Counted from the first letter of the stretch, positions 10,650 through 60,600 are shown. The stretch: 64,000 bases of DNA from Cytophagales bacterium (GCA_038235275.1 JBBSUC010000029.1:4545-68544); one strand, 5' to 3'. The notes: generated from the letters alone by a model not told the origin. Made by a program: numbers and translations.

Positions 10650-11864
10650 CTACTCCTCCGGTTCGCTGCGTTTGGCGAATTCGGCGTCGATCAAATACGC
10701 GCCTTTCGTTACCAGCTTTTGCCCGGTCAGATCGACGGGGCTTTTGATGGCGATGTTGCCCGAGTCCGCCGTATCGCCGATTTCTACGGGAATGCGTTGG
10801 AATTCATGACTATTTTTTTCGATGTAAACAAACCCGTTCGCGCCCTTCCGTACCAGCGCGTCGGGCGGCACGGTCAGGGCAGTGCGGCTGCCCGTACGGA
10901 TATAGGCAGACACGTACTCGCCGGGAATGAGTTCGCTCTCCCGCTTTTCGTCGCGGACGTGGGCGTGAATGTTCAGGCTGCGGGATTCGCCTTCCAACAT
11001 CCGGCCCACCAAATGTACGTAGGCTTGCATAGGCTGGCCGTTGGCGGGTACGATACGCACTTCCTGGCCCTTTTGAATCAGCGGCGCATCCTGCTCGAAG
11101 ACGTTGAGTTCAATGTGCATGTGACTTTTGTCAATGATTTCCAGCAATTCCTCACCAGCCATCACTTGCTTGCCCAGATTGATGTTGGCTATGGTAATAT
11201 AACCATTGACGGGTGAGACGATCCGCGCCGCCGACGCGATGCCGTCTTTTTCCAACGTACCTACCGATAGCCCCAGCAACTTCATTTTGGCGGCGAGCGA
11301 TTGGGTCAAAGCCTGGGTAGCGGAGTAATCAGCCTGGGCTTTTTCGTAATTTTTCCGAGCACCTACGTTCTCGGCGCTGAGCGTTTTTTGCCGCTCCAGT
11401 TCTTTTTGCAGGAAAGTGAGTTGGCTGCTATTTTGCAGATAATCCTGCTGCAACTGAATAAAGTCGAAGCTTTCCAGCGTCGCCAGCAACTCGCCCCTGC
11501 GGACGCGCTGTCCCGGCAGGGTATTGACGTACTTTATTTTACCGCCGATGGGCAGGCTCACCGTCGCGCGGTTCTCGGGCGGTAAATCTACCCGGCCATT
11601 GGCCTTCACTTCCGAACTCACCGTTTCGTTTTGTGCGCTACCCAGCTGTACGCCGATGGCGCGGTACTGCGGCTCGGTTAGGGTGATTTCGTTGACGGTG
11701 GTGCTGTCGGGCGCTGCCTTTTCGGTAGAGGCCATTTCGTCCGTCGGTTGTGATTCCGTTTGGCAGGAAAGTAGTGCTGCTGACAGGAGCCAGCTGAGGC
11801 CAATGATGTGTTTCCAGTTATTGTTTTTCATAGAAAAATTCTTAATCCTTTGATATTGGGACAA
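10650..11864 (-). CDS. efflux RND transporter periplasmic adaptor subunit (membrane fusion protein, CzcB/CusB-like)
   Basis: 404 aa. Lipoprotein-type N-terminus (LLSAALLSCQ), coiled-coil/lipoyl/beta-barrel MFP architecture, and adjacency to the CusA/CzcA pump. Confidence 0.85.
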   Translation of the reverse strand: MSQYQRIKNFSMKNNNWKHIIGLSWLLSAALLSCQTESQPTDEMASTEKAAPDSTTVNEITLTEPQYRAIGVQLGSAQNETVSSEVKANGRVDLPPENRATVSLPIGGKIKYVNTLPGQRVRRGELLATLESFDFIQLQQDYLQNSSQLTFLQKELERQKTLSAENVGARKNYEKAQADYSATQALTQSLAAKMKLLGLSVGTLEKDGIASAARIVSPVNGYITIANINLGKQVMAGEELLEIIDKSHMHIELNVFEQDAPLIQKGQEVRIVPANGQPMQAYVHLVGRMLEGESRSLNIHAHVRDEKRESELIPGEYVSAYIRTGSRTALTVPPDALVRKGANGFVYIEKNSHEFQRIPVEIGDTADSGNIAIKSPVDLTGQKLVTKGAYLIDAEFAKRSEPEE

Positions 11865-11930
11865 ATGTGGGGTGTCCGATTATTTAGCTATCGGGCGAAC
11901 ACATGGGTTCGCAGGTACGCCTGTCCGACC

Positions 11931-45312: not shown

Positions 45313-45455
45313 GCTGGGTATTGGCAGAGTGTTGATTTCGGGAGTGCAAAAATAGGGATTTGAGATGGGCTAACATTTTGTTTTTAAAAGAAGTTTTTAC
45401 AAAAAAAGCCCCGGAAAAAATTCCGGGGCTCAATGCTATTTGTACGAAAGCTGTT

Positions 45456-45704
45456 TCAGGTACCAGGGCAGCCACAGCTACTCTTTCGCTTGAAAATACC
45501 CAGAATTTTCTTGCTGCGGGGCTTCTTGTAGCCTTTATATTTCTTACGTTTCTTCTTTCCATTCTTGCCAAACAAACCCATTTCGGTTTTAGCAATCGTG
45601 ACTTGGGGCGCAGCCACTACCCGCGCTTCTGCTTCGATGCCGAATCCAACCAGCATCCAGCCGGAAAGGAAGAATATAATGAGTTTCTTGTTCATGGTTT
45701 TCAA
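45456..45704 (-). CDS. small secreted lysine-rich protein (hypothetical)
   Basis: 82 aa. Signal peptide MKTMNKKLIIFFLSGWMLVGFG, then a highly basic tail (KNGKKKRKKYKGYKKPRSKK) ending CGCPGT. Confidence 0.3.
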   Translation of the reverse strand: MKTMNKKLIIFFLSGWMLVGFGIEAEARVVAAPQVTIAKTEMGLFGKNGKKKRKKYKGYKKPRSKKILGIFKRKSSCGCPGT

Positions 45705-45869
45705 TATCGTGAAGGTGCAACCTTTTCTTTATGAACGTATTGATTGAAAATTTATTCCTCTCAAATCCAGGCGAAGTATCGATAATCGGCTATACTTATG
45801 GTGCCTTTTTGAAGTCCGGTTGTCGTTAACCTTTGACCGTTAACCTTTTAACCCAAAGGCCTGCGTCGC

Positions 45870-47126
45870 CTACCCCTTCACTAACTCTAATATAGTAATT
45901 TCTGGCAAAATTCCCACCCGACCAGGATAGCCGAGGTACCCGAAACCGCGATTCACGTACAAACGCTGCCCTTCTTCCTCGTACAATCCTGCCCATTCTT
46001 TATAGCGGTACTGCACCGGACTCCATTTGAAGCCCGGCACTTCTATCCCAAACTGCATCCCGTGGGTGTGGCCCGCGAGGGCGAGGTCGATGTCTTTGTA
46101 ATTGGGACGAACTTGCGCCTGCCAGTGGCTGGGGTCGTGCGAGAGCAGGATCTTGACCGGGTAATCCTCTGCCCCCCGGTAGGCTTTTTCAAGATCACCG
46201 TACTTAGCGAAGCCGCCCGCGCCCCAGTTTTGGATGCCGATCAGACCGATTTCGGCCCCGTCCACGCGGATAGGACGGTTTTCATCGAGCATCAGATTCC
46301 AGCCCATTTCTTTGTGGGCGGCGGCGAGGTCTTCGAGATTTTTGCGCTTGGCGGCGGCATTTTCGAAGGGCTGGTAGTCGCCGTAGTCGTGGTTGCCGAA
46401 AATGGAGTGAACGCCCAGCGGGGCTTTGACTTTACTGAACACATCGATGTAGTCTTTTACTTCGTAGGCGCGGTCGTTGACGAGGTCGCCGGTGAAGAAA
46501 GCGATATCGGGTTTTTCTTTGAGCAGCATGTCCACGCCGCCCTGCACCGCCGTTTTGTTGAAAAAACTACCCGAGTGTATGTCTGAGAGTTGCGCGATGC
46601 GGATGCCGTCGAACTCTTTGGGCAGATTTTTCAAAACCACCTTGACCCGGCGAATCCGGTAGTCGTGCGCTCCCGAAATGATGCCGTAGGCGAAAGTACC
46701 CAATAAACCACCGCCCGCGATGAGGGCGGTGGTGGACAAAAACTCCGAACGTGGGATGCGAGGCAGCGAAGGGTCGGCGGGCGCTGGGGCCACGGAGGGT
46801 ACAAACTGGCTGATGATCCATTGCAACAGGCGGCGAACGTCGTCGATGAGCAGGAAAAGTACGGCGAACAGTTTGGCGAAATAGGGAATGGCGATGCCCG
46901 CGAAGACAAAGTTGCGGACAGTTTTGTTGAAATAATCCGGCGGCAGGAGTTGCACGATGATATACGCGCCCAGCGTCAGAATGGAAAAACCCCAGTAAAC
47001 GCCCGTCACCCAGCGTTGGGTACTTTCGGAGGAAGTGCGGATGAGGGTGCGAACGGCTTGCCAGACGTACCAGTCGATGGCGAAGAAAATAAAGGTAAGT
47101 ATGAGAAAGAAAAAAGAGCGGTTCAT
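45870..47126 (-). CDS. membrane-anchored metallophosphoesterase (YkuE-like)
   Basis: N-terminal TM helices. Motifs DIHSG, GDLVND, GNHDY, GHTH. Start moved to Met MNRSFFFLILTF; the ORF extends upstream to 47261. Confidence 0.8.
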   Translation of the reverse strand: MNRSFFFLILTFIFFAIDWYVWQAVRTLIRTSSESTQRWVTGVYWGFSILTLGAYIIVQLLPPDYFNKTVRNFVFAGIAIPYFAKLFAVLFLLIDDVRRLLQWIISQFVPSVAPAPADPSLPRIPRSEFLSTTALIAGGGLLGTFAYGIISGAHDYRIRRVKVVLKNLPKEFDGIRIAQLSDIHSGSFFNKTAVQGGVDMLLKEKPDIAFFTGDLVNDRAYEVKDYIDVFSKVKAPLGVHSIFGNHDYGDYQPFENAAAKRKNLEDLAAAHKEMGWNLMLDENRPIRVDGAEIGLIGIQNWGAGGFAKYGDLEKAYRGAEDYPVKILLSHDPSHWQAQVRPNYKDIDLALAGHTHGMQFGIEVPGFKWSPVQYRYKEWAGLYEEEGQRLYVNRGFGYLGYPGRVGILPEITILELVKG

Positions 47127-47535: not shown

Positions 47536-48549
47536 TCACTGCTCATAAACTGCCAAAGCCTCCTTCATCCGCCTTTTAATAATTTGTCGGAGCTTCTCAG
47601 GCTCCAGTACGGTCACGCCTTCGCCAAAGCCGAGTATTTCTTTTTCAAGCTCGAAGTTATGCTGCACTTTCAGCTTAATGACCATGCCGTCGGGACCACG
47701 CTCCACGACCTGCTGCGAAGGGTGGAGCGGCTTGGTTTCGACGTAGGGCGCATGAAGCGCGGTGACGAATAACTTCACTTTGATGGGCCGCAAATTCCCA
47801 CTCACCGTAACCCCAATGACATCGCGATAATACAGTTCAGGATCAATTAGTTGATTGGGAATGTACTCGACGTCGGGCGCGGGTTTGAGGGCCATGATTC
47901 TGTCCAGGGCCAGATTTGTAACGTTCCGCTGGTCGGTGCGAACGCCCACCGCGAACCAGCGGTTTTTGAATTCTTTCAGCCACCAGACGTGAAACGTAAA
48001 CGTCTGCGAGTTGCGGGCCGAAAAAGACTGATACGTTAATTGAATCGCTTTCTTCTGAACCACGGCCTGGTACAGGTCGTCCAGGAAGTGCAGCCCTTTC
48101 AGGTTATCGTTTTTCTCAAAATCAATCACCGGAGCCACCTTTCGGGCCGACGAAAAAACGTGGTCTTCCAGCTTCTGCACCACTTCATTGAGGGCTGTAA
48201 AGTGCGAAAAACTCTTGAACTGTTTCAAAACCTCCACCGCTTCGTTCATCCGCGCCAAGTCGCCGTCCGAGAGCGGAATGTTGGTGATGCTGTAATTGGG
48301 ATCTTCGTAGGTGTAGTACTTCTTCTCCCGGATGATGATGGGCGCAAAATACCCCAGCTTGTCGCTCCGCATCATCTGCAAATCGGCCTGCACCGTGCGG
48401 CGGCTAATGCCTTTGTCGATGCCCTCGTATTCGTAGAGCGATTCCGAAACCTTTTCCATCAGATCTTCGAGCGTCCAGTTGCGCTGCCGGTTGCGCAGAC
48501 AGGCGTCGATGGTTTTGTAGCGGACGAGGGCGTTGCGGTTGGCGGGCAT
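47536..48549 (-). CDS. WYL-domain transcriptional regulator (HTH-WYL-C-terminal extension)
   Basis: N-terminal HTH (LVRYKTIDACLRNRQRNWTLEDLMEKV...ISRRTVQADLQMMR). Central WYL-type domain (FTFHVWWLKEFKNRWFAVG). Start moved to Met MPANRN; the ORF extends upstream to 48648. Confidence 0.75.
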   Translation of the reverse strand: MPANRNALVRYKTIDACLRNRQRNWTLEDLMEKVSESLYEYEGIDKGISRRTVQADLQMMRSDKLGYFAPIIIREKKYYTYEDPNYSITNIPLSDGDLARMNEAVEVLKQFKSFSHFTALNEVVQKLEDHVFSSARKVAPVIDFEKNDNLKGLHFLDDLYQAVVQKKAIQLTYQSFSARNSQTFTFHVWWLKEFKNRWFAVGVRTDQRNVTNLALDRIMALKPAPDVEYIPNQLIDPELYYRDVIGVTVSGNLRPIKVKLFVTALHAPYVETKPLHPSQQVVERGPDGMVIKLKVQHNFELEKEILGFGEGVTVLEPEKLRQIIKRRMKEALAVYEQ

Positions 48550-48783
48550 GAGCAGGAAAGAAAAAATATTTTCAGAAAAATAGAAAGTTTTTTCATCTGC
48601 GCAAAAACACTGCGCACTAGCCACTAACCTTTGTAGCGACGAAAGCAACGTAGTCGAACCTGATGCGGGTTTCTTTATAGCCCCATAGTGTCGGTAGTCG
48701 CTGACTGCCGATATGCTGTCGGCTGCGCCCTGTTTTTCGTCATTTGATCTGTCGGTCAGAGGTTCAATTCCTCTTCCTGCTTC

Positions 48784-48840
48784 GGCAGGATAGCTCAGTG
48801 GTTAGAGCAACAGTAAATGCGGGTTCGAGTCCTGCTACCA
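48784..48840 (+). ncRNA. truncated tRNA-like element (acceptor stem + D-arm + T-loop-like segment, no anticodon arm)
   Basis: GGCAGGA-TA-GCTCAGTGGTTAGAGC gives perfect tRNA 5' acceptor and D-arm consensus. The 3' TCCTGCT-A-CCA pairs with the 5' acceptor, and GGTTCGAGTCC is the T-loop consensus. Only ~20 nt separate D-arm and 3' acceptor, so total length is ~57 nt. Confidence 0.4.
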
Positions 48841-49183
48841 CCCGAAAGGGTGGTCCGTTGGTGGAAGGCGAAGCAGACCACTTCATAAAAAAGGTCACCT
48901 TGAAAAACCAGTAGAGACGCTGCCCCGTGAACTATTCGGCTTGCCGGATACGCCACAATTGAGTCGATGCCAGCGGGCAGACCAGGGGACAGCCGGGCCG
49001 GAAGGCCGCTTCTGGAAGAGCATTCAGTATTGATTCTGCCAACGATTTCCCTGTTGGCACCCGGTGCTGAACCCTTTTTCCGAACCGCCTTCCCGAAGGT
49101 CGTCGCCACCTGCCTCCGCGTGGGCTGAATGGGTAGCGGCTCGCTGGTTTATATTTAGCAACCACTTTTTATCAAAAATAACC

Positions 49184-50290
49184 ATGAAAACCGTACGCAT
49201 CCAGACCCAGGAAATTGGATTGTTATTCAAGAACGGCGATTTCCACAAAGTACTTACACCCGGCAAGCACTGGATTTGGCCCAACGAAACGCTGTATTTC
49301 TACAAGCGCAGGGATTTGCTGCAAAACCCACCCCGTGATTTGACGATACTGCTTTCGTATCCCGAAATCGCCGCCGAACTGGATGTGGTCGAAGTAAAAG
49401 ATAACGAAATTGCGATACAGTACGAAGACAACCTGTTCCGGGCCGTGCTGCCTAAAGGGCGCTGGGCCTACTGGAAAGGCGTGAAAAACTACCATTACCA
49501 GATTCTGGACATCACGCAACTGGCGATTCCGGCGGAAGTTGATTTAGCCTCGCTGATGCCGCAGCCCCTGGGTGCCTACGTGCGGACGACAACCGTCGAA
49601 GGCCACGAAAAAGGTACACTGTTCATCGACTGGAAATTCGAGAGCGTGCTGGAACCCGGCGTCTATCACTGGTGGAAAAACAACACGCCCGTCCACGTGC
49701 TGAAAGTGGACACGCGCCGCCAGCAAATGGAAATTTCGGGCCAGGAAATTTTGACTAAGGACAAAGCCACCATTCGGCTAAGCTTCTACGTGCAGTACCA
49801 CGTTCGGGATGTGATCAAGGCGTTGGTCGAAAACAAAGACTACGACAAGCAACTGTACGTACAAATGCAGTTGGCCCTGCGGGCCTACATCGGCGGCTTG
49901 ACGCTGGACGAGTTGTTGGATAAGAAAGCTGACATGACGGATGCCATCCTGCAAGCTACGGCTGCAAAAGCCGGAGAACTGGGCGTCGAGTTGAGCGGTG
50001 GCGGGGTGCGCGACATCATCCTGCCGGGCGATATGCGCGACATCATGAACCAGGTGTTGACGGCCGAAAAGAAAGCCCAGGCCAACATCATCATGCGTCG
50101 GGAAGAAACCGCCTCGACCCGCAGCTTGTTGAACACGGCCAAGCTGATGGAGGATAACGAGATGCTGTGGAAATTGAAAGAAATGGAGTACGTCGAGAAA
50201 ATCGCCGAAAAAATGAACACCATTTCCGTCTCCGGCAGCGGTCAAGTCATTGACCAGTTGAAGCAGATTTTTGTTTCTTCTAAAAATTGA
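49184..50290 (+). CDS. SPFH/band-7 domain protein
   Basis: 368 aa from MKTVRIQTQEIGLLFKNGDF. The SPFH core is followed by a coiled-coil region (AEKKAQANIIMRREETAS...). Upstream part of the ORF (49064..49183) rejected. Confidence 0.8.
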   Translation: MKTVRIQTQEIGLLFKNGDFHKVLTPGKHWIWPNETLYFYKRRDLLQNPPRDLTILLSYPEIAAELDVVEVKDNEIAIQYEDNLFRAVLPKGRWAYWKGVKNYHYQILDITQLAIPAEVDLASLMPQPLGAYVRTTTVEGHEKGTLFIDWKFESVLEPGVYHWWKNNTPVHVLKVDTRRQQMEISGQEILTKDKATIRLSFYVQYHVRDVIKALVENKDYDKQLYVQMQLALRAYIGGLTLDELLDKKADMTDAILQATAAKAGELGVELSGGGVRDIILPGDMRDIMNQVLTAEKKAQANIIMRREETASTRSLLNTAKLMEDNEMLWKLKEMEYVEKIAEKMNTISVSGSGQVIDQLKQIFVSSKN

Positions 50291-50394
50291 ACCCCACCGT
50301 AATGAACTCCCCCCTCTCCCCTTTTCAGGAGAGGGGGTCAGGGGGTGAGGTGAAAACGAACACGATACATTTGAATTAGTAAACAATCCCAATC

Positions 50395-51930
50395 ATGGAA
50401 ACTGACTTGATTACCATCGAAGACATTTTGGTGCTTGCTCCCATCCCCACCGACCTGCACACGCCTTTCCTGCGGGTGGCCAATGGCTTGACGCAGCGGG
50501 CCAAATATCCCAAAGAAAAAGTTCTGGGCTTGCTGGCGCAGATGTTCCAAAACCCAAAAAAATACGCCTACTCCAAAAACAAGGTCACCAATCTGGCCCG
50601 CACCATTTACGCCCTCAACAAGCAAGGCATCTCCGTCCCGTTGAGCGAAGCCGGGGCTGCTTACCTGCTGCCAGAACCGACGCCCTACGCCATTCAGGCC
50701 GAGGGAAAGCAGCAGGCCACGGCCTTCGACCTGCGAACGGAGCGGCTGCCCTACGCTATTTTTGGTCGCGAACACATCGAAGACGGCGCCTTGCAGCAAA
50801 TGGAAACCGCCGCCAGTCTACCCATTGCGGTGGCCGGGGCGCTCATGCCTGACGCGCATCAGGGCTACGGCCTGCCCATCGGTGGGGTACTGGCCACGGA
50901 GCCGAACACCATCATTCCGTTTGCCGTCGGTGTCGATATCGCCTGCCGAATGTGCCTGTCGGTTTTTGACCTGCCGCCGGATTACTTGAAGCGCGAGCCG
51001 CATTTGCTCAAAAAGACTTTGGTCGAAAAAACCAAATTCGGGATGGGCGGCGAAGTGCGCGAGAAGTTCGACGAGAGCGTCATGGACTTGCCTGAGTGGC
51101 AGGCGACCAAGGTCATTCGCGATCTGAAAGACAAGGCATACCGGCAATTGGGAACGTCCGGTACGGGCAATCACTTCGCGGAGTGGGGCATCATGGACGT
51201 GTACGCCCAAGACGAAGCCAACGGCCTCGACCTGCCGCCGGGCCAATACATGGCGCTGCTGACGCATTCGGGTTCGCGGGGTTTTGGCGGGACGGTGGCG
51301 AATTATTACTCCAAACTCGCCATGCAGAAAACCCGCCTGCCCAAACAAGCCGCGCACCTGGCCTGGCTCGACCTGAACACCGAAGAAGGGCAGGAATACT
51401 GGATTGCCATGAACCTGGCGGGCGAATACGCCTCGGCCAATCACCACGAAATCCATAATAAAATAGCCAAAGCCCTGCGCGAAAAACCACAGCTGATGAT
51501 TGAAAACCATCATAACTTCGCCTGGAAAGAGCAACTGGCCGACGGCCGCGAGGTGATGGTGCACCGCAAGGGTGCTACCCCCGCCGGACCCGGCGTGCTG
51601 GGCATCATTCCGGGTTCGATGACCAAACCCGGCTTCGTGGTGCGGGGTCGCGGCCACGCCGATTCCATTAATTCGGCTTCGCACGGGGCCGGGCGGCTGA
51701 TGTCGCGGACGAAAGCCCTCAACAGCATCACGCAGTCGCAGTTGAACAAGGCGTTGCAGGAAGCCGACATTCAGCTCATCGGCGGTGATCTGGACGAGGC
51801 CCCGATGGTGTACAAAGACATCGACACCGTCATTGACGCCCAGCGCGAATTGGTGGAGGTACTGGCGAAGTTTACGCCGAAAATTGTGAGGATGGCGGAT
51901 GCTAATCGGAAGGAGGGGCGGGAGGATTGA
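50395..51930 (+). CDS. rtcB: RtcB-family RNA ligase with ~110-aa N-terminal extension
   Basis: Metal-binding MPDAHQGYGLPIGGV, GTSGTGNHF, HSGSRGFG, and the C-terminal NHHNFAW motif characteristic of RtcB. At 511 aa it is longer than the ~400-aa canonical enzyme. Confidence 0.85.
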   Translation: METDLITIEDILVLAPIPTDLHTPFLRVANGLTQRAKYPKEKVLGLLAQMFQNPKKYAYSKNKVTNLARTIYALNKQGISVPLSEAGAAYLLPEPTPYAIQAEGKQQATAFDLRTERLPYAIFGREHIEDGALQQMETAASLPIAVAGALMPDAHQGYGLPIGGVLATEPNTIIPFAVGVDIACRMCLSVFDLPPDYLKREPHLLKKTLVEKTKFGMGGEVREKFDESVMDLPEWQATKVIRDLKDKAYRQLGTSGTGNHFAEWGIMDVYAQDEANGLDLPPGQYMALLTHSGSRGFGGTVANYYSKLAMQKTRLPKQAAHLAWLDLNTEEGQEYWIAMNLAGEYASANHHEIHNKIAKALREKPQLMIENHHNFAWKEQLADGREVMVHRKGATPAGPGVLGIIPGSMTKPGFVVRGRGHADSINSASHGAGRLMSRTKALNSITQSQLNKALQEADIQLIGGDLDEAPMVYKDIDTVIDAQRELVEVLAKFTPKIVRMADANRKEGRED

Positions 51931-51968: not shown

Positions 51969-52853
51969 CTACCTCTCGTTGAGTTTTCGTTTTAGTTCTT
52001 CGATTTCCTTTTGAGCGTCGGTCAGTGCTGATTTGGTGTCCGTTAATTCGGATTTGGTTTCTGTCAATTCCGATTCTGCCTCCGACAGTTTTGCTTTCAG
52101 TTTTCCAGCCCGCTCATCGAACATCGCCTCGACGCTCCGCCAGGCTTCTTGCTCGGTTTCGATTCTTCGCTTTTCTTCCGGGTCAGTTCCGGTATGGTGC
52201 AAGAGGTCGGTCATAATTTTCACTTCTTCAAGGTCAGCGTCGTGGTTGAACTGCTTGATGATCTGAGCATTATCAACGAAGTTCCCCTGTTCGAAGACAC
52301 TCAGCAGTTTATCGAGCCGGGTTTGGTACTTCGACTCGATCCTCGGCAACTGAATCACAAAACAGTCGTGGGTCAGTCTTTCGATGAATTCGCTCTTTTT
52401 CTCGATGATTTGGTCGGCGATCATATCCATGTATTGCCGCTGTACCCGTACCGCCGAGGTTTCGATTTCGGGCAGTGTGAAACCGAGCAGATAGATCGTT
52501 ACGATGGGCAGCGGCTCTTTCTTTTTCCCGGTTGAGGTCTCCACCTCGTCCTCCTTTTTGTACTGCTCAGCCAGGTAGTTGCGGAAACGCATGAGGTCGA
52601 TCTGATTCTTGGCCTTCTGAATCTCGATCAGCACTTTCTTGAATTCCCCGTCCTGGTTTTTGATCGTGGCGATGAAGTCCAGGCGAAAGACCGCCAACCC
52701 GGCCATTTGGTCGGTATAAGTAAATTCCTGCGGCTTTACCTGTACGTGTTCAATAGTCTCGTCCAGCAGCGTACCGATGAAGAATTTCGCAATGCGCTCG
52801 TCTTCCATGAGCCGCTTGAAGACTACGTCGTAGATGGGGTTGGCGATGATCAT
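51969..52853 (-). CDS. PD-(D/E)xK nuclease family (Rpn/YhgA-like putative recombination-promoting nuclease/transposase) with C-terminal coiled coil
   Basis: N-terminal NPIYDVVFKRLMEDERIAKFFIGTLLDETIEHV resembles the Rpn-family N-terminus. Acidic/basic core (FRLDFIA...VLIEIQKAK). C-terminal heptad-like LSEAESELTETKSELTDTKSALTDAQKEIEELKRKL. Confidence 0.45.
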   Translation of the reverse strand: MIIANPIYDVVFKRLMEDERIAKFFIGTLLDETIEHVQVKPQEFTYTDQMAGLAVFRLDFIATIKNQDGEFKKVLIEIQKAKNQIDLMRFRNYLAEQYKKEDEVETSTGKKKEPLPIVTIYLLGFTLPEIETSAVRVQRQYMDMIADQIIEKKSEFIERLTHDCFVIQLPRIESKYQTRLDKLLSVFEQGNFVDNAQIIKQFNHDADLEEVKIMTDLLHHTGTDPEEKRRIETEQEAWRSVEAMFDERAGKLKAKLSEAESELTETKSELTDTKSALTDAQKEIEELKRKLNER

Positions 52854-53281
52854 GAGCGGCGGGGTGAGTTTTTGGTAAAGTTAGGGAATAGTTGGGGATG
52901 TGTAATGGTGCCATTGCTGACGTGCGTTGGGTGAACACGGCCCGCTCCTACCTGGGTCTGGTCTCTTCGGCCTGGCAGTTCTCACGCCGTTGTGCGCTCT
53001 CATGGAGTGAAAGTTTCGTTCCTTGTTTGCAAATCGCGAACAAAGAACAGACTAGCGTCCTAGCGACTTGGGATTGTTCAGATGGTTGGTACGAATTGAA
53101 AGGAAGGGAAGATTGAGAATACTTAGTGGCTTCGGCCTTCGTCGCGTTGCAAACGCGAGGTGATGCAACGCCCGATTGTAAATCGGGGTTAGCGGGGGAG
53201 ATACATACATAAACGGCTGGTGCTAAATCAAAAAAAAGTCGCCAAATTGTGACCCACTACACAGAATGAACACGTAAGCGT

Positions 53282-54094
53282 ATGCCAACTCCCTATCTTA
53301 GATGGACTGGATCGAAAAGATGGCTAATAAAAGATCACATAAAAGATTATCTACCAGTAAGTTTTAATAATTATCATGAACCATTCCTAGGGGGAGGGGC
53401 TATGTTTTTCTATTTAATAACAAACAACCCCAATAGTATTAAGAAATTTAATCTTTCCGATGTAAATGAGGAGTTGATCAACTGCTACATTCAGGTACGC
53501 GATAAGCCGAAAGATTTAGTTAACACGTTAAAATCTTTCAACAATACTAAACAGCACTACTACTACATTAGAGATAAAATGTTTAGAGATGATATTAGTA
53601 GGGCTGCGAGATTTATTTTTCTAAACCGTACTTCCTTCAATGGTATTTATCGTGTTAATAATCAAGGAAAGTATAATGTACCTTACGGATATAGACAAAA
53701 AGTTGATTTTGTTACTGAGGACCTAATTCTTTCTGTTAGCAACTCATTAAAGTCAGTTGAGTTAAATTGTCGGAGTTTTGAAGAATCCATAGAACAAATC
53801 CAAAGAAAAGACCTTGTTTTTATTGATCCACCTTATACAGTAGCGCATGAAAATAATGGATTTATAGAGTATAACCAAAAATTATTTTCTTGGGAAGATC
53901 AGATAAGACTCCGAGATTTTATTGAAAAAGTTAAATTGAAGGGAGCACATTTTATTCTCACTAATGCTAGTCATCCATCAATTTCAGAATTATACGCTGG
54001 TATTGGTGCGTCTAAAACATTAAGTCGTATATGTAAAGTTGGCGGCAGAAACAAGACTCGTGGAGATTTCAATGAACTATTAATATATGGTTAA
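53282..54094 (+). CDS. Dam-family (alpha-class) DNA N6-adenine methyltransferase
   Basis: N-terminal YLRWTGSKRWL (Dam RxxKWAGGK-like SAM motif). FLGGGAM. Catalytic DPPY in FIDPPYTVAH. AT-rich coding sequence. Confidence 0.85.
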   Translation: MPTPYLRWTGSKRWLIKDHIKDYLPVSFNNYHEPFLGGGAMFFYLITNNPNSIKKFNLSDVNEELINCYIQVRDKPKDLVNTLKSFNNTKQHYYYIRDKMFRDDISRAARFIFLNRTSFNGIYRVNNQGKYNVPYGYRQKVDFVTEDLILSVSNSLKSVELNCRSFEESIEQIQRKDLVFIDPPYTVAHENNGFIEYNQKLFSWEDQIRLRDFIEKVKLKGAHFILTNASHPSISELYAGIGASKTLSRICKVGGRNKTRGDFNELLIYG

Positions 54095-55044
54095 AATTTT
54101 ACCTTGTTCTTTAAATAAAGAATTTTATTACAGACTATTTGGCCAGAAGGTTGAATATTGATAGAAGGATTTTTAGGTTGCTTCAAATATAAACAGGTTA
54201 CAGATTCGAATCTTTGGCTTATGAGAATTGAAGCAATTGTAAAAATTTTGGGCCCAAGAGACAAAAATAAGATATCCCTTTTGTAGATATTATTACTCAC
54301 AATCTCGGCATAAGTTCTGAAAATATATTCAAGATCTTGAATTGGGCATTTGACCCAATGGTTTATATCCCCCTTCAATATAGTTTTAATGTCACTCATA
54401 TTATTTGGTGAATAGTTTGGATCCAAAGAACTCGCAATAATTCCCAACGTAGAGTTCGGTTCGATATCCTCTATCACGGCCTTGACCAGATATGGAGAAT
54501 ATCCCACGCCTAATACTAATAAGGTACGAACATTTGCACTCAAAGACCCTTCATGAGAAGGAAGTGAACTAATTTCGCTATATGTGTAGTCTAGGAATTT
54601 TGCCTTCTCGTATATCCCAATCGAATAAGTTAAGTATACTTCAATGTCCTTTTCTTGTTGAAAACGAAGAAAATTTAGAATACCAGAATACCATAGTCGT
54701 GCCATTGAGGTGTAGTCAACTAAAATACGAACGGTAGCAGTATCATCGAGTTTCGTAAAGATAGTAATCAACTCACTGTAAATACCCTTTTCCTCTGCGG
54801 AAGAAATTAGCACTGCCTTGGAGCCCTTTTCTGAATAGAATAAATCATTTTGCTTTCTAACAGGGTTGTGTTCAAACTCCTTAAAACCTAAGACTAATGG
54901 ATAATGAATTTGCTCAAAATCAATACTTTTTGCGACAAAAGTGGCGCGACTTTCATAACCTGACGCAAATATTCCAATATCGAAAGCAATATCTTTAATT
55001 TCAGATATTGCTATGTTACGTACGCTAATAAGATTAAGCATCAA
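54091..55044 (-). CDS. hypothetical protein, third gene of phosphoesterase-ATPase operon
   Basis: 317 aa. Its start overlaps the ATPase stop by 11 nt. AT-rich. No motif recognised. Confidence 0.5.
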   Translation of the reverse strand: MMLNLISVRNIAISEIKDIAFDIGIFASGYESRATFVAKSIDFEQIHYPLVLGFKEFEHNPVRKQNDLFYSEKGSKAVLISSAEEKGIYSELITIFTKLDDTATVRILVDYTSMARLWYSGILNFLRFQQEKDIEVYLTYSIGIYEKAKFLDYTYSEISSLPSHEGSLSANVRTLLVLGVGYSPYLVKAVIEDIEPNSTLGIIASSLDPNYSPNNMSDIKTILKGDINHWVKCPIQDLEYIFRTYAEIVSNNIYKRDILFLSLGPKIFTIASILISQRFESVTCLYLKQPKNPSINIQPSGQIVCNKILYLKNKVKF

Positions 55045-56869
55045 AATTTATAGATAATTGTTGGAAATTTGGAATACTTGAAAGACGTCGGGAATCACCT
55101 TTCCTAGGTAGAAGCTTAAATCTTGGAGAAAGTATAAAGGCCAAATGAAATACTCCTTCCATTGTTGGCATATAGTCCGGATTTTGCGAGTTTATGTTTG
55201 GATAAATTAATCCTCGTTGAACAGCTCTTTCGATTAACTTCCACTCAATATCGCCAATTGTATTTGTTATCTCAATTGATGATATCTGTTCTAAATTGAG
55301 TTTGTTATTATGGATATGATCGTACATAAAATTTCCAATTGACAAAATAAATTCATGCAATCCCGTTCCAAAGTTTTTTTCGATTCGATAACGATTCAGT
55401 TCACGCTCGGAAATTGACGTGAGAACCATGTTCTGATTGCTGTATGATATTACTGGCTGTGGTAACTCAATATGGATTGGTGATTTTTGCTTGTTATACT
55501 TACCTGATTCGACAACTGATAACATTTCGCTGAATATATCAATCAGCTTCCGAGGGTTAGCATCACCAACATTGATGACAGTTTTTGCACCACAGTACAA
55601 TTCCATATTTGATTTACCCGTTCGTGTTGCCTCATACTCTTTTAAATATAATAAAGCTCTTAATTTTCTCCCGAATTGATTACCAAATTTACCTATTTCT
55701 TTGCTAGCCAATAACTCAACACCCCGTCGCTTGGTAGCTTCGTTGGTATGCTTAAGAAAAAGCGAAAGCGTTTCATTTCCTATCACTAATTCCTCAATAT
55801 TTGCTAAGGTCAGCTTTTTCTTATTAGAATTCAAAATTTCATCATAGGAAATCATTTTATTATCCAATAGATATGATTTTCCGAACAAATCCTGAAAAGT
55901 ATAGTCAGCAAACTCTGGCTTCGACAATTGAGCTCGTTTCTTAAATAACTTGTAAGCGTTACTATTATTAGGAATTGCTCTGTATCCGAAAGAAACATCC
56001 TGATCAATGTATACGTATTCTACATCATGTCGAATATCTAGCGGTACGTTTAAGTTCGTTTCCAGAGTGTAGTGACAATAAGGTAACGTTGTAAATTTAA
56101 AGAAAATATTCCCCATATTCGCTCTCATATAGGAATTCAAGATTCTATGATGAAATTCGTCAAGCATCTCGATTTCGTCAATGCAGACAAACCAGGAAGT
56201 ATAGTCAGGAAATTGAAGTCCCCTACTAATAATCTTTATGCCATCGATAAGCGGATCATAAAGGTCAAGCTCAAAGGTAAGGCCGATCGGCTCTTCGTCA
56301 CGAACGATATTATATATTTTCTTTTCGAGATTACGCTTTGATCGGAGAGTAACAATTCGTTCCAGTTCTAATAGAATATCATCTATTGAAACTATTTTTG
56401 TGGCCTCAGGAAACCAAGTTCTCGAAAGGTTGCGTACTATTTCAACCTCCTTTACAACACGCTCTTCATCCACTTCAATGTAAGCAGAAAGGCAACTCCT
56501 AAATGTTTCAAGCAAAGCGATGCAAGAAGCAATATTCATTAGCCAACGAAAATGATATTCTTTTTCTTGATCATTCTGCCAGTCTTTGTTTTTTAGCCCC
56601 CCTACAAACTTTGTTTTTGTCGATATGTGAATCCCAATGTAAGTCTTATTTAGGATAATATCTTTGGCAATTACATTTTCCAATAAAGACAGATGATCAT
56701 GAGAAAGTACTTTAAGAAGTGCAGTCTTGCCTGAACCCCTAGATCCAATAATAATCTGGTTTTTAGGAGATAATAGTCTTTCAAATGAATGGGTCACTAC
56801 AAAAGTATCAACCAACTCCCTTTTGAGTAGGTAACGCGCATTATGTAGTGCAAACAAATTTCTATTCAT
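55034..56869 (-). CDS. P-loop NTPase (Walker A/B ATPase) of unassigned family
   Basis: 611 aa. Walker A IIIGSRGSGKTALLKVL. Putative Walker B FVCIDEIEMLDEFHH ~180 aa downstream (ABC/AAA_21-like spacing). Overlaps flanking genes by 4 and 11 nt. Confidence 0.65.
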   Translation of the reverse strand: MNRNLFALHNARYLLKRELVDTFVVTHSFERLLSPKNQIIIGSRGSGKTALLKVLSHDHLSLLENVIAKDIILNKTYIGIHISTKTKFVGGLKNKDWQNDQEKEYHFRWLMNIASCIALLETFRSCLSAYIEVDEERVVKEVEIVRNLSRTWFPEATKIVSIDDILLELERIVTLRSKRNLEKKIYNIVRDEEPIGLTFELDLYDPLIDGIKIISRGLQFPDYTSWFVCIDEIEMLDEFHHRILNSYMRANMGNIFFKFTTLPYCHYTLETNLNVPLDIRHDVEYVYIDQDVSFGYRAIPNNSNAYKLFKKRAQLSKPEFADYTFQDLFGKSYLLDNKMISYDEILNSNKKKLTLANIEELVIGNETLSLFLKHTNEATKRRGVELLASKEIGKFGNQFGRKLRALLYLKEYEATRTGKSNMELYCGAKTVINVGDANPRKLIDIFSEMLSVVESGKYNKQKSPIHIELPQPVISYSNQNMVLTSISERELNRYRIEKNFGTGLHEFILSIGNFMYDHIHNNKLNLEQISSIEITNTIGDIEWKLIERAVQRGLIYPNINSQNPDYMPTMEGVFHLAFILSPRFKLLPRKGDSRRLSSIPNFQQLSINFDA

Positions 56870-58074
56870 TCTTGCTCATTTACAAATATGATTCTATTTC
56901 CAACTGTTCCTCTACTGAGATTGTATCTGTCTTCAATGTCTTTCAGCAGCTTTTCTTGTTTTGTATTCGGTAAGTATTCCATATCTGCAATTCCTGAGAC
57001 TACATTATCAAAAAAAATAACTTTTTCACCTAGCCCAATTCTCTCAATATTTTGGGAACATTGATCCAAAATCTTTTCAACAGGTGTTTCATTACCGAAG
57101 GGATTTATAAAGTAAATCCCATGATTATCTCGACTCTCTATCCACTCATATAACGTAGGATCATAGGCAAATGACAAAACTTTTCCCTTACATGGCTTTT
57201 CATTAACTTCAATAATGTGGAACAGGTTACCAACGGCCCCTGCAATTTCGGAAGGGACTTCGCAAGAATAACTGCCTGAACATAAAATGTTGATAGTTGA
57301 AGTGCCATTTGGATTGATTACTGAAAAAAAAGGCACGTGTCGGTGTCCATGAATGACGAAGTGAAAATCGAATTCTGATAACAGATCCAACAAAGCCTGA
57401 GCATTCTGTATACAAGAGAATTCACGCCATGTCGGATGTGGATTAGTATATTGATACACATGGTGATGAACTACAAAGACTTTAAGTTTGTCTTCAAAAA
57501 CAGTCAATTCTAACATTTCTCTAAGCTTTGCCACTTGACTTAGCTCAATTAGACCGTAGTGACTTTTTTGTAATGGATCGTCATGCCAAGACGAATTGAA
57601 ACCGAAATACACCACATCATTAAATTCCCACTTCTCAATATATGGTTCTGCCACTAATGCAGATGATGAAAGTCTTGAGAAAATATGTTCAGGATCTTTT
57701 AAAGTATTGTATTTGTGTCGCTTTCTAAGTTCTCGCTCATTTTCTTGAATTGTTGAACCATTTAATACTGACCAATCTACGTCATGATTACCAGGGACAA
57801 AAATTACTTTCGTGTCTTCCATGTGAAGTTCAGAAAGCACCTTGCGCAAGAATACTTCTCCACAATCATATTCAACGAGATTGGATTGATGAGTAACATC
57901 TCCTGGAATTACTAGATAATCAATATTTCCGTTGCTATCCTGATAGATTTTCAGCGCTCTAAGAAATGAACTTACTTGCTTATCATCTTTGCTGTTTCCC
58001 TCTGGATAGGGACAAAGTTCTTTCGTTCTAGCGCGTACCCCAATGTGAAGGTCACTAATTACCAATATTTTCAT
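56866..58074 (-). CDS. calcineurin-like metallophosphoesterase (Mre11/SbcD-like fold) with C-terminal extension
   Basis: 402 aa. Motifs ISDLHIG, IPGDVTH, VPGNHD, VVHHH, HGHRH. First gene of the three-gene operon. Confidence 0.8.
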   Translation of the reverse strand: MKILVISDLHIGVRARTKELCPYPEGNSKDDKQVSSFLRALKIYQDSNGNIDYLVIPGDVTHQSNLVEYDCGEVFLRKVLSELHMEDTKVIFVPGNHDVDWSVLNGSTIQENERELRKRHKYNTLKDPEHIFSRLSSSALVAEPYIEKWEFNDVVYFGFNSSWHDDPLQKSHYGLIELSQVAKLREMLELTVFEDKLKVFVVHHHVYQYTNPHPTWREFSCIQNAQALLDLLSEFDFHFVIHGHRHVPFFSVINPNGTSTINILCSGSYSCEVPSEIAGAVGNLFHIIEVNEKPCKGKVLSFAYDPTLYEWIESRDNHGIYFINPFGNETPVEKILDQCSQNIERIGLGEKVIFFDNVVSGIADMEYLPNTKQEKLLKDIEDRYNLSRGTVGNRIIFVNEQE

Positions 58075-58524
58075 TTATCTTAAAAGGTAAAGCCTGACAA
58101 GTGTCTTATGATCTTGCCACCGCCTACTTAGAATGTGTCTGATTTGAGAAGATAAAAGAGTCCATTTTTGTACATTATAAGTGCCAGATCGAAAGTAATG
58201 ATACAATTTTGTCTCTGCCATCTTCCCGTATCTCGTAGTTTTCCCAGGTATTAAGTTGTGCGTATGTCTTCCGAAGGGAGACTGCATACTAAAATAAGAG
58301 GCCACTGATGGTCGGCCCCGTTCAACGGCCACCGTCGTCAAAAGCCGCATACTCCGCTAATCCTAATTTAATGGCGAGCCAGTTATATCGTGGCTGTTTT
58401 TTTCAAATATACTTTTTTTTGCGAGAGATTTTAAATATTTAACCATTTAGCTCTTTACACGCAAGAATCCACTTTTCCTCGTCCGTAGGCTTTACGGGAA
58501 CTCGCTTCACTAAATCCCTCCCCC

Positions 58525-60600
58525 TCACTTCCCCCGCGCAATCTCCACATCATGCTCCACCTCCGCCAGCTTCCCCGCAAAGGAAAACGGCTCAGCGGTG
58601 TGGAACAGAAAAGACGGTTGGTTGTACTGTTCGATGGCCGCCGCGTAGTTTTTCCAGTGCGTCACGCACTTTTCCAGCAGGGTGATCGCTTCTTTTTGGT
58701 AAGCCTTTTGGCCGTTTTGGCGATACTTCGCCAGGGCCACGCCCGCCCGCAGCTTGTCGGCAAAGTAGCGCGCGAAGTACGACCAGGCTGCCAGATCGGC
58801 CAATTCGGCGTCCAGCGTGGGCGTTCCTTTGCCCGTCCATTTTTGGGCGATGCCCAGGGAACGCTGCGCAATCCGGTCGAGGCTGTCGGCCAGTTGGGGC
58901 GGCGACAGGATGCCCGGCGCTACCTTTTCCCCATCGGCGAGGTAGGTTTTGATATTGACGAAGCGCAGCGTGTCTAGTACGGGATGGTCGATGATGTTAT
59001 TGATGTCGAAGAGAAAGTGCTTCCCTGCCCCAATCCAATTTCCGAAACTCTCGGTGTAGAGCGACAGGTCGTTTTGGCCCTTGTGGTAGGAAGCAAACAG
59101 CAGCGGCACCCGACTGGCATTTTTCCATCCGACCAGCAAATCTTTGGCTTTATCGGTCCCAAAGCGGTCGGCCAGCAGGTTTTGAAAAACGGTGTCCGGC
59201 GTGGTGTCGTCGTACAGCAACCGCCCCCACGACGCGTACCATAGCCATTGCCGCTGGAAATGCCAGTTCCAGGTCCGGTGCGGACCGTCTTTGCTGATAT
59301 AATCCTTAGCGGGGATTAGCCCCTCCGACCCCACGAAGCAGCCGCCCACGTAGTCGGCGCCGTTGTTGGTGATGAATTCCCGGATGAAATCGGGCTGTCC
59401 CCAGCGCAGCACGAAAAAGTCCTCGTTGCGCAGCGTCCAGACCACCTTGAACTTATCCGACACCGGGTTCCAGTAGGCATCCGACAGCTTGCCGCCGTGG
59501 ACCTGGAACAGGTTGGGCGACGAATGCCCGTGCGACCAGTTATACTTGAATTCCACGTAAGCCTCCGTCACGTCCAGTTCCTCGACCTGCTGTCGGCTGC
59601 GCAAGTCGTTCTCGGCACTGGTGGTGCCGCCCGATTTTTCGTTGGCGGAGAGCGGGGCGCGGTACACGAATTTGATCTTGCGCTTGGCGTCGCGCATCCC
59701 GGCCAGGATGGTGCGGTCGAGCCAGGCGCGGCGCTCGTTGGGGTTTTGGCCGCCCATGCGCTCGCCCAGCGTGATGCCCAGCCCGTCGAGGTCGTCGTAT
59801 TCGTCGATGACCTGCCGGATGATCTCGCGGGTGTAGCGCTCGGTGATTTGGGTCGTGTCGCCCGCGCCGATGTGCGCCCCCTCGTAGTTGCCCACGTTAT
59901 GGGCCCGCGCGAAGGAGGGCGACACGAAAATGTTCCAATTGATGATGTAGGTCTCGATGCCCCGCTCGTGCGCCATGCGGAAAAGCGCCTTCCAGAACAT
60001 TTGCCACTCACCCATCTCGAACTCGTTGAATTGCGTGGCCTCGGGGAAGTTCTTGGGAATGACCATGTAGTGAAACAAATGCTGCGACCACAGCGACAGC
60101 ACGTTGAAGCGGTTTTGGGCCATATTGTCGAGGTAGGCTTCCCAGAAATTCAGGTCGCGGCAGGTCCAGTCGTGCTGAGTCAGGGAGGGGCCATTGCGGT
60201 AGGCCATGTAGGGAAGATTGAACTTGACCGCCCGGAAACTCAGGCGGGGCCGCACGGTTTTGGCCGTGACCTGGGCCAGGCTTTTGCCCCAGCGCAACTG
60301 CTCACCCACGTCCAGCAAGCCGTACAGGGTGCCGTTGTCGTCGCCCGTTTGGAGGAGGAGTTGGTTGCCCCGCCGCTCGATTCGGTAGCTTTCTTTGCCT
60401 AAAGACACCTCGGTCGAAACCACCACGTACGCCGTGGTTGGGGCGGTTTCTTTGACCACGAAGCCTGCTATTTCCACCGATTGCCGGAACTGCCGCAGGG
60501 CGTAGTCTATTACGGGCGATTTGTTGGCCACGGCGATGGTAAGATCCTTGGAGAAAGCCGAAAACGGAAGCAACCAAAAAAGCAGGGCGAGTTTTTTCAT
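58525..60600 (-). CDS. secreted glycoside hydrolase-like protein (GH20-type N-terminal zincin-like domain + TIM-barrel suspected)
   Basis: Signal peptide MKKLALLFWLLPFSAFS. DDNGTLYGLLDVGEQL resembles the N-terminal domain of GH20-like hydrolases. 691 aa with no other firm motif. Confidence 0.45.
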   Translation of the reverse strand: MKKLALLFWLLPFSAFSKDLTIAVANKSPVIDYALRQFRQSVEIAGFVVKETAPTTAYVVVSTEVSLGKESYRIERRGNQLLLQTGDDNGTLYGLLDVGEQLRWGKSLAQVTAKTVRPRLSFRAVKFNLPYMAYRNGPSLTQHDWTCRDLNFWEAYLDNMAQNRFNVLSLWSQHLFHYMVIPKNFPEATQFNEFEMGEWQMFWKALFRMAHERGIETYIINWNIFVSPSFARAHNVGNYEGAHIGAGDTTQITERYTREIIRQVIDEYDDLDGLGITLGERMGGQNPNERRAWLDRTILAGMRDAKRKIKFVYRAPLSANEKSGGTTSAENDLRSRQQVEELDVTEAYVEFKYNWSHGHSSPNLFQVHGGKLSDAYWNPVSDKFKVVWTLRNEDFFVLRWGQPDFIREFITNNGADYVGGCFVGSEGLIPAKDYISKDGPHRTWNWHFQRQWLWYASWGRLLYDDTTPDTVFQNLLADRFGTDKAKDLLVGWKNASRVPLLFASYHKGQNDLSLYTESFGNWIGAGKHFLFDINNIIDHPVLDTLRFVNIKTYLADGEKVAPGILSPPQLADSLDRIAQRSLGIAQKWTGKGTPTLDAELADLAAWSYFARYFADKLRAGVALAKYRQNGQKAYQKEAITLLEKCVTHWKNYAAAIEQYNQPSFLFHTAEPFSFAGKLAEVEHDVEIARGK

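Follow-up and report, generated by a model that had tools for sequence, protein, structure and literature searches.

A mobile four-gene cassette links a Dam-family DNA methylase to a predicted CARF/SAVED-like sensor, an ORC/Cdc6-like ATPase and a calcineurin-like phosphoesterase, and is a likely bacterial defense system

We describe a compact gene cassette at positions 53282-58074 of a 64,000-nucleotide stretch of DNA from a Cytophagales bacterium (GCA_038235275.1 JBBSUC010000029.1:4545-68544), the whole of which is referred to here as the window. The cassette combines an adenine DNA methylase with a core operon of three genes encoding a phosphoesterase, an ATPase and a protein whose designation as a tandem CARF/SAVED-like sensor is well supported by profile matches and a structural model, with ligand binding predicted. 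The same set recurs in more than 100 independent loci, so the arrangement is far beyond chance, and the four genes very likely form one functional unit. That unit is likely a defense system, as predicted from its genes. The core would depend on Dam-type N6-adenine methylation, provided by the linked, exchangeable methylase or, apparently, by a Dam enzyme of the host. It is hypothesized, as a possibility that we favor without calling it probable, that the cassette is an abortive-infection alarm in which the CARF protein would sense breakdown products of host DNA that bear N6-methyladenine (m6A), the ATPase would assemble, and the phosphoesterase would deplete nucleotides. The features of the cassette are as follows, with lengths in amino acids (aa).

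53282-54094, plus strand: methylase, 270 aa, a Dam-family (D12 class, alpha-type) N6-adenine DNA methyltransferase
54091-55041, minus strand: CARF protein, 316 aa from the ATG at 55041, a predicted tandem CARF/SAVED-like sensor
55034-56869, minus strand: ATPase, 611 aa, an ORC/Cdc6-like (STAND-like) AAA+ protein
56866-58074, minus strand: phosphoesterase, 402 aa, a calcineurin-like metallophosphoesterase, first gene of the operon and predicted effector
58075-58524, minus strand: leader, AT-rich and non-coding, 5' of the operon, guanine-plus-cytosine (GC) content 0.41, probable promoter region

A previous annotation made without database searches (the sequence-only reading) had delimited all four open reading frames (ORFs), and an ORF recall at 53282-58074 returned exactly the same coordinates. 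The 4-nucleotide overlap that it reported between the convergent methylase and CARF genes is the TTAA at 54091-54094, in which a TAA stop is read on each strand. The start/stop overlaps that it saw within the minus-strand operon are present as ATGA at 56866-56869 and as 8-11 nucleotides at 55034-55044, and the motifs quoted for the methylase, phosphoesterase and ATPase are all intact at their residues. Its coordinates for a 317-aa ORF also stand, but the length does not, as an identical database protein starts at the ATG at 55041 and has 316 aa. A public sequencing-run assembly holds an identical 5.1-kb contig in which the third gene begins at this ATG, and an alternative TTG start is found at 55044. 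The AT-rich island is equally real, with a GC content of 0.31-0.41 over 53000-58500 compared to 0.49-0.63 in the flanks; the cassette has a GC content of 0.35 and the remainder of the window 0.53. In the leader, a 91-aa ORF at 58075-58350 has no match in Pfam, PADLOC, NCBIfam or PHROGs and is probably spurious. A promoter scan of the leader gave a weak sigma-70-like match at 58435-58406, promoter and terminator scans being uninformative in DNA this rich in AT. No flanking direct repeats, tRNA or Rfam match were found at the island borders.

Loci were collected from a scan of one genome per prokaryotic species with the CARF alignment, contig look-ups of ATPase and CARF homologues, viral contigs and metagenomes, and most of them lie in metagenome-assembled genomes or on short contigs. 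At least 12 phyla carry the gene set. The one-genome-per-species scan contributed 29 loci, distributed among Bacteroidota, Chloroflexota, Acidobacteriota, Planctomycetota, Nitrospirota, Verrucomicrobiota, Gemmatimonadota, Spirochaetota, Desulfobacterota, Alpha- and Betaproteobacteria and others, and a scan of viral contigs with the CARF alignment found nothing. Wherever two or more genes are visible, the order phosphoesterase, ATPase, CARF is invariant, and their stop and start codons usually overlap. Pairwise identities of the three core proteins are correlated (r = 0.89-0.93). Among the loci compared, and within about 5 kb, there is no fifth gene in common, and the flanks are unrelated everywhere. 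At the nucleotide level, the window resembles its closest fetched relative in the coding block only, 53292-57923. Of 26 fetched loci compared, 25 are like the window in that cassette GC falls below that of the flanks.

In an exhaustive profile search the family numbered 370 representatives at E<1e-30 (clusters at 50% identity) and 2,203 at E<1e-3, figures that supersede the 62 clusters of a word-indexed search. No copy was present in 50,697 phage records or, by DNA search, in 5,426 complete E. coli genomes, and 72,556 plasmids yielded only remote partial ATPase matches. Copies of the cassette adjoin integrases, a reverse transcriptase, a type IIG restriction-modification enzyme and a relaxase. 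The horizontal acquisition proposed for the island thus agrees with its foreign GC content, patchy distribution, differing flanks and the end of similarity at the gene borders. The conservation check likewise bears out the grouping of the four genes as one conserved mobile unit, with the methylase adjoining the core in 76 of 85 decidable loci (89%). A role in defense is proposed because the cassette is mobile and patchy, has foreign GC, occurs in a prophage hotspot and beside defense-type neighbors, and has two parts that are homologous to validated defense proteins. Locus L103 has two partial copies in opposite orientation, with a phosphoesterase and ATPase forward and a phosphoesterase and methylase reversed, which suggests tandem insertion or rearrangement of two cassettes.

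The third operon product had been described as a protein with no recognizable motif, a description that is no longer tenable. It matches the PADLOC model 'CARF6--CARF_CARF_CARF' at 2.1e-49 over its full coverage, and its AlphaFold2 model (predicted local distance difference test score 92.3; predicted template modeling score 0.91) consists of two Rossmann-like halves in a tandem CARF/SAVED-like fold. The 'CARF6' model names reportedly come from Makarova et al. 2020. Foldseek ranked the Cap4 SAVED receptor first with this model (8.9e-5), and the fold neighbors are Can1, Can2, Csm6, Cam1, Cap4 and Cap5. The most conserved residues of the family are those of four strand-to-helix loops, GYExR, DY[ST]SMxRxWY, GxG[YF] and GPK, which in the window read FASGYESR (54946-54969), DYTSMARLWY (54688-54717), GVGYSP and LGPK (GPK at 54247-54255). 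All four loops are kept in 92 of the 92 homologues collected, including those of a clade without methylase that is described below. In CARF proteins, strand-to-helix loops form the ligand site. Small-molecule signaling, an option absent from the sequence-only reading, is indicated because the protein once considered motif-free is predicted to be such a sensor.

Likeness to the CARF/SAVED receptors Can1, Can2/Card1, Csm6, Cap4 and Cap5 lies in the fold and in the conserved ligand-loop residues, and the single-chain, two-domain arrangement of Can1 and the SAVED proteins is found in the cassette protein as well. Unlike the receptors of type III CRISPR systems and of CBASS (antiphage systems that signal through cyclic oligonucleotides), the cassette protein has no fused effector domain; its ATPase and phosphoesterase partners are separate proteins, and its gene is linked to that of a DNA methylase. 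An alternative explanation is that the core is a stand-alone receiver of type III CRISPR or CBASS cyclic oligonucleotides made elsewhere in the cell, with Dam a passenger; the core would then serve as an accessory effector module of CARF type, or else the phosphoesterase would be a signal-degrading enzyme resembling ring nucleases. The fold neighbors listed above are receptors for cyclic tetra-adenylate (cA4), cyclic hexa-adenylate (cA6) or CBASS signals, PADLOC places the family among CRISPR-associated CARF models, and the nearest solved relatives of the phosphoesterase are phosphodiesterases (Lmo2642, GpdQ, LpxH, Rv0805 and Icc). We nevertheless consider this explanation very unlikely. No cas10, CD-NTase or other cyclase is shared among the loci compared, the flanks of which were not scanned with cyclase profiles; where flanks were examined with Pfam there was no cyclase, while CBASS and type III systems are defined by a linked one. 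A passenger effect cannot account for Dam adjacency that reaches 89% in at least 12 phyla, involves at least three methylase subtypes and occurs at variable positions, and the cassette moves as a unit.

The ATPase is a full-length match to PF24389 (ORC-CDC6-like AAA+) and carries a Walker A motif, GSRGSGKT, at 56723-56746 and a Walker B motif, CIDEIE, at 56168-56185. Helices make up its C-terminal half, which terminates in a small alpha/beta module. The fold neighbors include Cdc6/Orc1, BrxC, TnsC and MuB, together with STAND proteins, and the ATPase profile had no match among PDB sequences. It is an AAA+ protein and not of the ABC/SMC type of Rad50/SbcC, and it has no coiled coil.

All metal ligands of a calcineurin-like enzyme are present in the phosphoesterase (D8-L-H10, G58-D59, G95-N-H-D98, H203-H205 and G243-H-R-H246), which matches PF00149 in Pfam at 1e-16. 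Among NCBIfam models, DS9_1 matches at 2.1e-27 over profile positions 196-449, which correspond to its Calcineurin-CE part; the score of 96 bits compares with about 30 bits for the next calcineurin-like family and lies below the equivalog cut-off of 420. Matches to the DS8 model of NCBIfam (5.4e-9) and to PDC-S60 of PADLOC (1.4e-11) are weak and N-terminal, and SbcD (TIGR00619) matches at 1.5e-4 with 21.7 bits, the cut-off being 77.65. When a family profile of 24 members was compared with PDB sequences, Lmo2642 of Listeria was the best match (2.6e-12), followed by GpdQ, LpxH and Rv0805/Icc (GpdQ, LpxH and Rv0805 at 1e-4 to 1e-3), with Mre11/SbcD at only 0.006-0.04; the single sequence gave one weak match. 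Rv0805 and Icc are cyclic-nucleotide phosphodiesterases, as is Lmo2642. Among homologues, conservation extends through the core of the protein to about residue 327, beyond which the tail varies. The designation "Mre11/SbcD-like" is therefore right as to motifs and calcineurin fold, but the affinity to Mre11/SbcD is only at superfamily level. By these profile comparisons, the enzyme is much closer to nucleotide-targeting Calcineurin-CE proteins and to cyclic-nucleotide phosphodiesterases, which weakens a reading of the cassette in terms of a nuclease or restriction.

These results also bear on the explanation that the cassette is a housekeeping or repair module, either of the SbcCD/Mre11-Rad50 kind or a replication factor resembling ORC, that happens to lie beside an orphan Dam. 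The superfamily-level SbcD/Mre11 matches and the ORC/Cdc6-like fold of the ATPase are what such a module would predict. The ATPase, however, is not an ABC/SMC protein, the SbcD score is far under its cut-off (21.7 vs 77.65 bits), the distribution is patchy (billions of proteins contain just a few hundred sequence clusters of the family), the GC content is foreign, the flanks differ everywhere, and a prophage hotspot, a satellite-like element and integrative elements all harbor copies. A housekeeping function is thus extremely unlikely. The sequence-only reading had itself named assignment to an SbcCD-type repair complex with an unrelated methylase as the finding that would overturn it; instead we found an AAA+ ATPase, an SbcD match below cut-off, a co-conserved methylase and flanks that differ between loci.

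The methylase belongs to PF02086 (1.2e-47, 163 bits; cut-off 22) and scores 216.8 bits against TIGR00571 'dam' (cut-off 114.85). It has the motifs of the D12 class, including the S-adenosylmethionine-binding motif FLGGGA and DPPY at 53825-53836. DpnM (M.DpnII 1) is the closest solved structure (2.5e-51), followed by E. coli Dam (1.9e-24). DpnM is a GATC methylase. Positions 119, 120, 122, 124 and 134, which we take to be the GATC-contacting hairpin residues of E. coli Dam, are kept in 24 of the 24 system methylases aligned, in all subtypes. The resemblance of the cassette to the DpnII/MboI GATC restriction-modification systems is confined to this nearness to DpnM. The cassette has no endonuclease of that kind or other recognizable restriction nuclease; three unrelated partners stand in its place, and none of them has a match among the restriction-enzyme families of Pfam, PADLOC or NCBIfam, as a classical Type II system would require. 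At least three methylase subtypes occur, one with 'YRTN…NVPYA/S', one with 'YRVN…NVPYG', and a third, divergent D12 form of 411-416 aa that was detected by Pfam and missed by the family hidden Markov model, at the following positions.

L024, 10923-12173: 411-416-aa D12 methylase, downstream of the cassette, found by Pfam
L070, 4401-5636: 411-416-aa D12 methylase, upstream of the cassette, found by Pfam

Where present, the methylase usually heads the operon, to which it is often translationally coupled; some loci have it downstream and co-directional, and a few, the window among them, have it convergent with the operon. Its pairwise identities follow those of the core only loosely (r = 0.65). 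Compared to the window, L017 and L038 have ATPases that are 39-40% identical and methylases that are 52-53% identical, and L005 and L007 show the opposite pattern. Because position and subtype vary and identities track the core loosely, the methylase has clearly been exchanged.

Of nine decidable loci without a methylase, seven fall in a single ATPase clade in which none of the 11 loci has one; L006 and L106 lie outside it. One member of this clade, L041, is a P2-like prophage in which the three-gene core is situated between a homologue of replication gene A (gpA) and the portal gene. This gpA–portal interval is the tin/old defense hotspot of P2-like prophages (Rousset et al., PMC9122126). L042, a P4-like, satellite-like element, adjoins a P4-family primase that is 88% identical to E. 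coli and Klebsiella sequences; the flanks of L098 are 75-90% identical to E. coli DNA, and the tex gene at L099 is 68% identical to E. coli yhgF. Enterobacterales and their relatives carry a housekeeping Dam. Since the methylase was lost from a clade whose sampled members are in likely Dam+ hosts, the most economical interpretation is that Dam-type methylation is required by the core and that the methylase acts in trans, which would make it redundant in such hosts. The comparison with a co-evolving, PglX-like subunit, implied by the earlier analogy to BREX (bacteriophage exclusion), fails on the same grounds: the enzyme can be exchanged, and a clade from likely Dam+ hosts does without it.

The two loci outside the clade have intact cores and no D12 methylase. 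At L006, a 969-aa type IIG N6_Mtase/Eco57I enzyme and a 226-aa gene are located directly upstream (L006 / L002, 2694-6276), in an element that also has integrases and a NikA/relaxase pair. The type IIG enzyme could be a substitute source of m6A or merely a neighboring system. At L106, a transposase is immediately upstream. Further neighbors of methylase-less copies include a DDE transposase and an HNH protein at L106 (3855-4898, 10073-10831), a reverse transcriptase at L120 (10020-11771), and a DEAD/ResIII helicase and DUF3800 protein at L097 (3047-5245, 10021-10803), all of them typical of defense islands or mobile elements. Beside the core of L041, in the gpA–portal hotspot, are a 242-aa gene of no assigned function and a 297-aa radical-SAM gene (10662-12280), which may be a second defense cargo.

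Two recently described systems shape the mechanism that we propose, since the cassette has the same logical parts as separate proteins. In DS-9 (PUA-Cal-HAD), a Calcineurin-CE effector is triggered by Dam-derived N6-methyl-deoxyadenosine monophosphate (m6-dAMP) from the phage-degraded chromosome and depletes deoxynucleoside triphosphates (dNTPs), and relatives of DS-9 are linked to N6-adenine methylases without a restriction enzyme (bioRxiv 10.64898/2026.01.15.699771). DS-8, which is also validated, joins a related metallophosphatase to a NACHT STAND NTPase in one protein and requires the activities of both (PMC13092281). By analogy, a sensor (the tandem CARF protein), a switch of STAND/ORC type and a calcineurin-like effector would be the corresponding parts of the cassette. 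The methylase would place m6A on the host chromosome, thereby supplying the signal precursor, and a phage that breaks down host DNA would free m6A-bearing mono- or oligonucleotides. These would bind the composite pocket of the tandem-CARF protein, which would activate the ATPase; the ATPase would assemble in STAND/ORC fashion and turn on the phosphoesterase. Hydrolysis of dNTPs, nucleoside triphosphates or nicotinamide adenine dinucleotide (NAD+), and possibly of nucleic acid, would halt phage replication at the cost of the cell. We propose m6A as the signal because the methylase is the only modifying enzyme of the cassette, which has no other possible signal synthase; the CARF ligand, the order of events and the phosphoesterase substrate are the parts of the model that we infer. 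A mark common to all Dam+ cells would be a good substrate for an alarm. It would be a poor label to distinguish self from phage, because a phage leaving a neighboring Dam+ cell already bears the mark. A more sweeping version, which we regard as doubtful while still entertaining it, is that the cassette is a portable "methylome alarm" that uses its own Dam to turn the chromosome into a store of m6A danger signal, to be read by the CARF protein and answered by the ATPase and phosphoesterase, and that lineages in Dam+ Gammaproteobacteria have dropped the methylase and draw on the Dam of the host.

The sequence-only reading had instead likened the cassette to BREX or to ATP-dependent restriction. 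In an explanation of this kind, Dam would protect self DNA and the ATPase would load on unmethylated DNA; the phosphoesterase would be a nuclease or a replication block, as proposed for PglZ, and the CARF protein an adaptor or allosteric regulator like BrxB. The methylase is adjacent to the core in 76 of 85 loci, often as the coupled first gene of the operon, and Cdc6/Orc1, BrxC, TnsC and MuB all act on DNA. The solved BrxC-BrxB-PglZ complex is an analogue with an ATPase, a small partner and a phosphoesterase (PDB titles; PMC12839542). MANTIS shows that AAA+ ATPases can govern methylation-based discrimination, Mre11 and SbcD are nucleases that have the calcineurin-like fold (weak matches here), and methylase loss in Dam+ hosts is compatible with restriction of DNA with unmethylated GATC. 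Set against this, there is no PglZ, PglX-type methylase or recognizable restriction nuclease, and the three core proteins have no BREX or restriction-modification effector match in PADLOC. The phosphoesterase is at least 20 orders of magnitude nearer to Calcineurin-CE than to SbcD, and the strictly conserved CARF/SAVED ligand-type pocket has no known role in restriction-modification. The methylase hairpin looks uniform across phyla, unlike target recognition in Type I, Type III and BREX systems, and an enzyme so freely swapped is not a co-evolving subunit. In Enterobacterales, phages from neighboring cells would already be Dam-marked, making discrimination weak, and L006 and L106 have intact cores outside the methylase-less clade without a D12 methylase. 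The restriction or BREX-like logic therefore remains viable, but is weakened by the CARF sensor, the affinity of the phosphoesterase and the exchangeable methylase, and we judge it unlikely on balance.

Several considerations weigh against the m6A alarm. Tight linkage of a methylase is a classical signature of restriction-modification, and recognition of GATC by the methylase is a probable feature only, drawn from its similarity to DpnM and Dam and from the kept hairpin. ATPases of the ORC/Cdc6 type, BrxC among them, typically act on DNA, and calcineurin-like enzymes include true nucleases. The sensor of DS-9 is a PUA-like domain unrelated to CARF, and we know of no CARF protein that binds m6A nucleotides. 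Loss of the methylase in Dam+ hosts would fit a restriction model equally well, and the host affinity of the methylase-less clade is drawn from 4 of its 11 loci.

In the comparison with named systems, DS-9 has a Calcineurin-CE effector to which the cassette phosphoesterase is homologous, and it depends on Dam-type m6A, as is predicted for the cassette. The cassette phosphoesterase, however, starts at the catalytic D8 and lacks the N-terminal PUA-like domain, and its DS9_1 score is 96 bits compared to the 420-bit equivalog cut-off. No HAD gene is conserved near the cassette; in its stead there are a tandem-CARF protein, encoded separately, and an AAA+ ATPase of 611 aa, usually with a methylase of the cassette's own. 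DS-8, like PDC-S60 of PADLOC, resembles the cassette in having a metallophosphatase effector governed by a STAND-type P-loop NTPase, but it is one polypeptide with a NACHT domain and without CARF or methylase, whereas the cassette ATPase belongs to PF24389. From BREX, the cassette differs in lacking PglZ (alkaline-phosphatase fold), a PglX-type methylase, BrxA and BrxL; its ATPase (611 aa) is half the size of BrxC (~1200 aa), its methylase is, unlike PglX, exchangeable and, acting in trans, dispensable, and there are no PADLOC BREX matches. With a phosphoesterase of PF00149, a methylase of the D12 class and an ATPase of PF24389, the cassette is not a member of BREX, and BREX-related systems gave no match to it either. 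MADS is a different system, the preprint text of which mentions no ATPase or phosphoesterase and which has the methylated target TCAGNNNNTCC. MANTIS/Gao_RL uses MtsA-D and a helicase-nuclease, unlike the cassette. None of the P2/P4 hotspot systems Bandua, Aernus, Toga, Reve, Crouga and Hailong matches, and nor do the Domainator examples.

The earlier impression that the cassette is no named system thus holds for every system compared, although surveys of the CARF family and of Calcineurin-CE outside this comparison may already depict the operon. PADLOC v2 recognizes the methylase (as generic) and the CARF protein (as a CRISPR-associated CARF family), with the ATPase and phosphoesterase marginal. 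Individual families are already catalogued, as 'CARF6' models and as Pfam PF24389, and literature searches on 'CARF6' and 'Sll1717' returned nothing useful. BREX, SbcCD, classical Type II restriction-modification, CBASS/type III signaling, DS-9 and DS-8 each have a fold or a piece of logic in common with the cassette, which belongs to none of them. By analogy, the cassette would be a methylation-linked, nucleotide-sensing immune module with a Calcineurin-CE-like effector, and in that sense not categorically new.

Within the window, the surroundings of the island are less telling. The genes to its left are the following.

Within 47536-51930, minus strand: WYL-WCX regulator, left of the island
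49064-50290, plus strand: SPFH/Band7 protein, left of the island
50395-51930, plus strand: RtcB, left of the island

These genes look like an RNA-repair or stress cluster and are not beside the cassette at other loci. Of the upstream neighbors that had been taken as a sign of a defense island, WYL and RtcB are indeed present, but for the gene called a PD-(D/E)xK Rpn-like nuclease, at 51969-52853, searches of Pfam, PADLOC and NCBIfam gave no match of that kind. As the right flank also looks housekeeping, a defense-island neighborhood is not confirmed at the window; a defense role as such stays plausible, one copy being in the gpA–portal hotspot. The supposed nuclease gene, a 294-aa ORF at 51969-52853 (minus strand), has a single weak match, to a DUF31 peptidase family (5.5e-4), and none in PADLOC or NCBIfam. 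Between it and the methylase, some 380 bp of GC-rich non-coding DNA (52900-53280) contain several short hairpins, and no tRNA or Rfam match was found there. To the right, 58525-60600 (minus strand) encodes a 691-aa protein with no Pfam domain and a sub-threshold NCBIfam match to alpha-D-galacturonidase (1.4e-34), beyond which are cytochrome-c/GSDH and 3-keto-disaccharide hydrolase genes. A second, smaller GC dip (0.45-0.50 compared to ~0.6 nearby) occurs at 45000-46000, upstream of the WYL gene.

If the cassette does serve in defense, it would be an unnamed system of at least 12 phyla that joins a cyclase-less CARF/SAVED sensor, an ORC/Cdc6-type ATPase and a calcineurin-like effector, which are all tied to Dam methylation and to our knowledge have never been characterized together. 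The methylase-less clade is a natural experiment on whether the methyl mark acts as a shield of self or as the source of a danger signal. The answer would show what CARF domains outside CRISPR systems sense, and would indicate whether the m6-dAMP alarm of PUA-Cal-HAD exemplifies a general strategy. Were the alarm model true, the CARF protein would be the first receptor of its family for a modified deoxynucleotide, and the cassette the first immune system to install the precursor of its own trigger.

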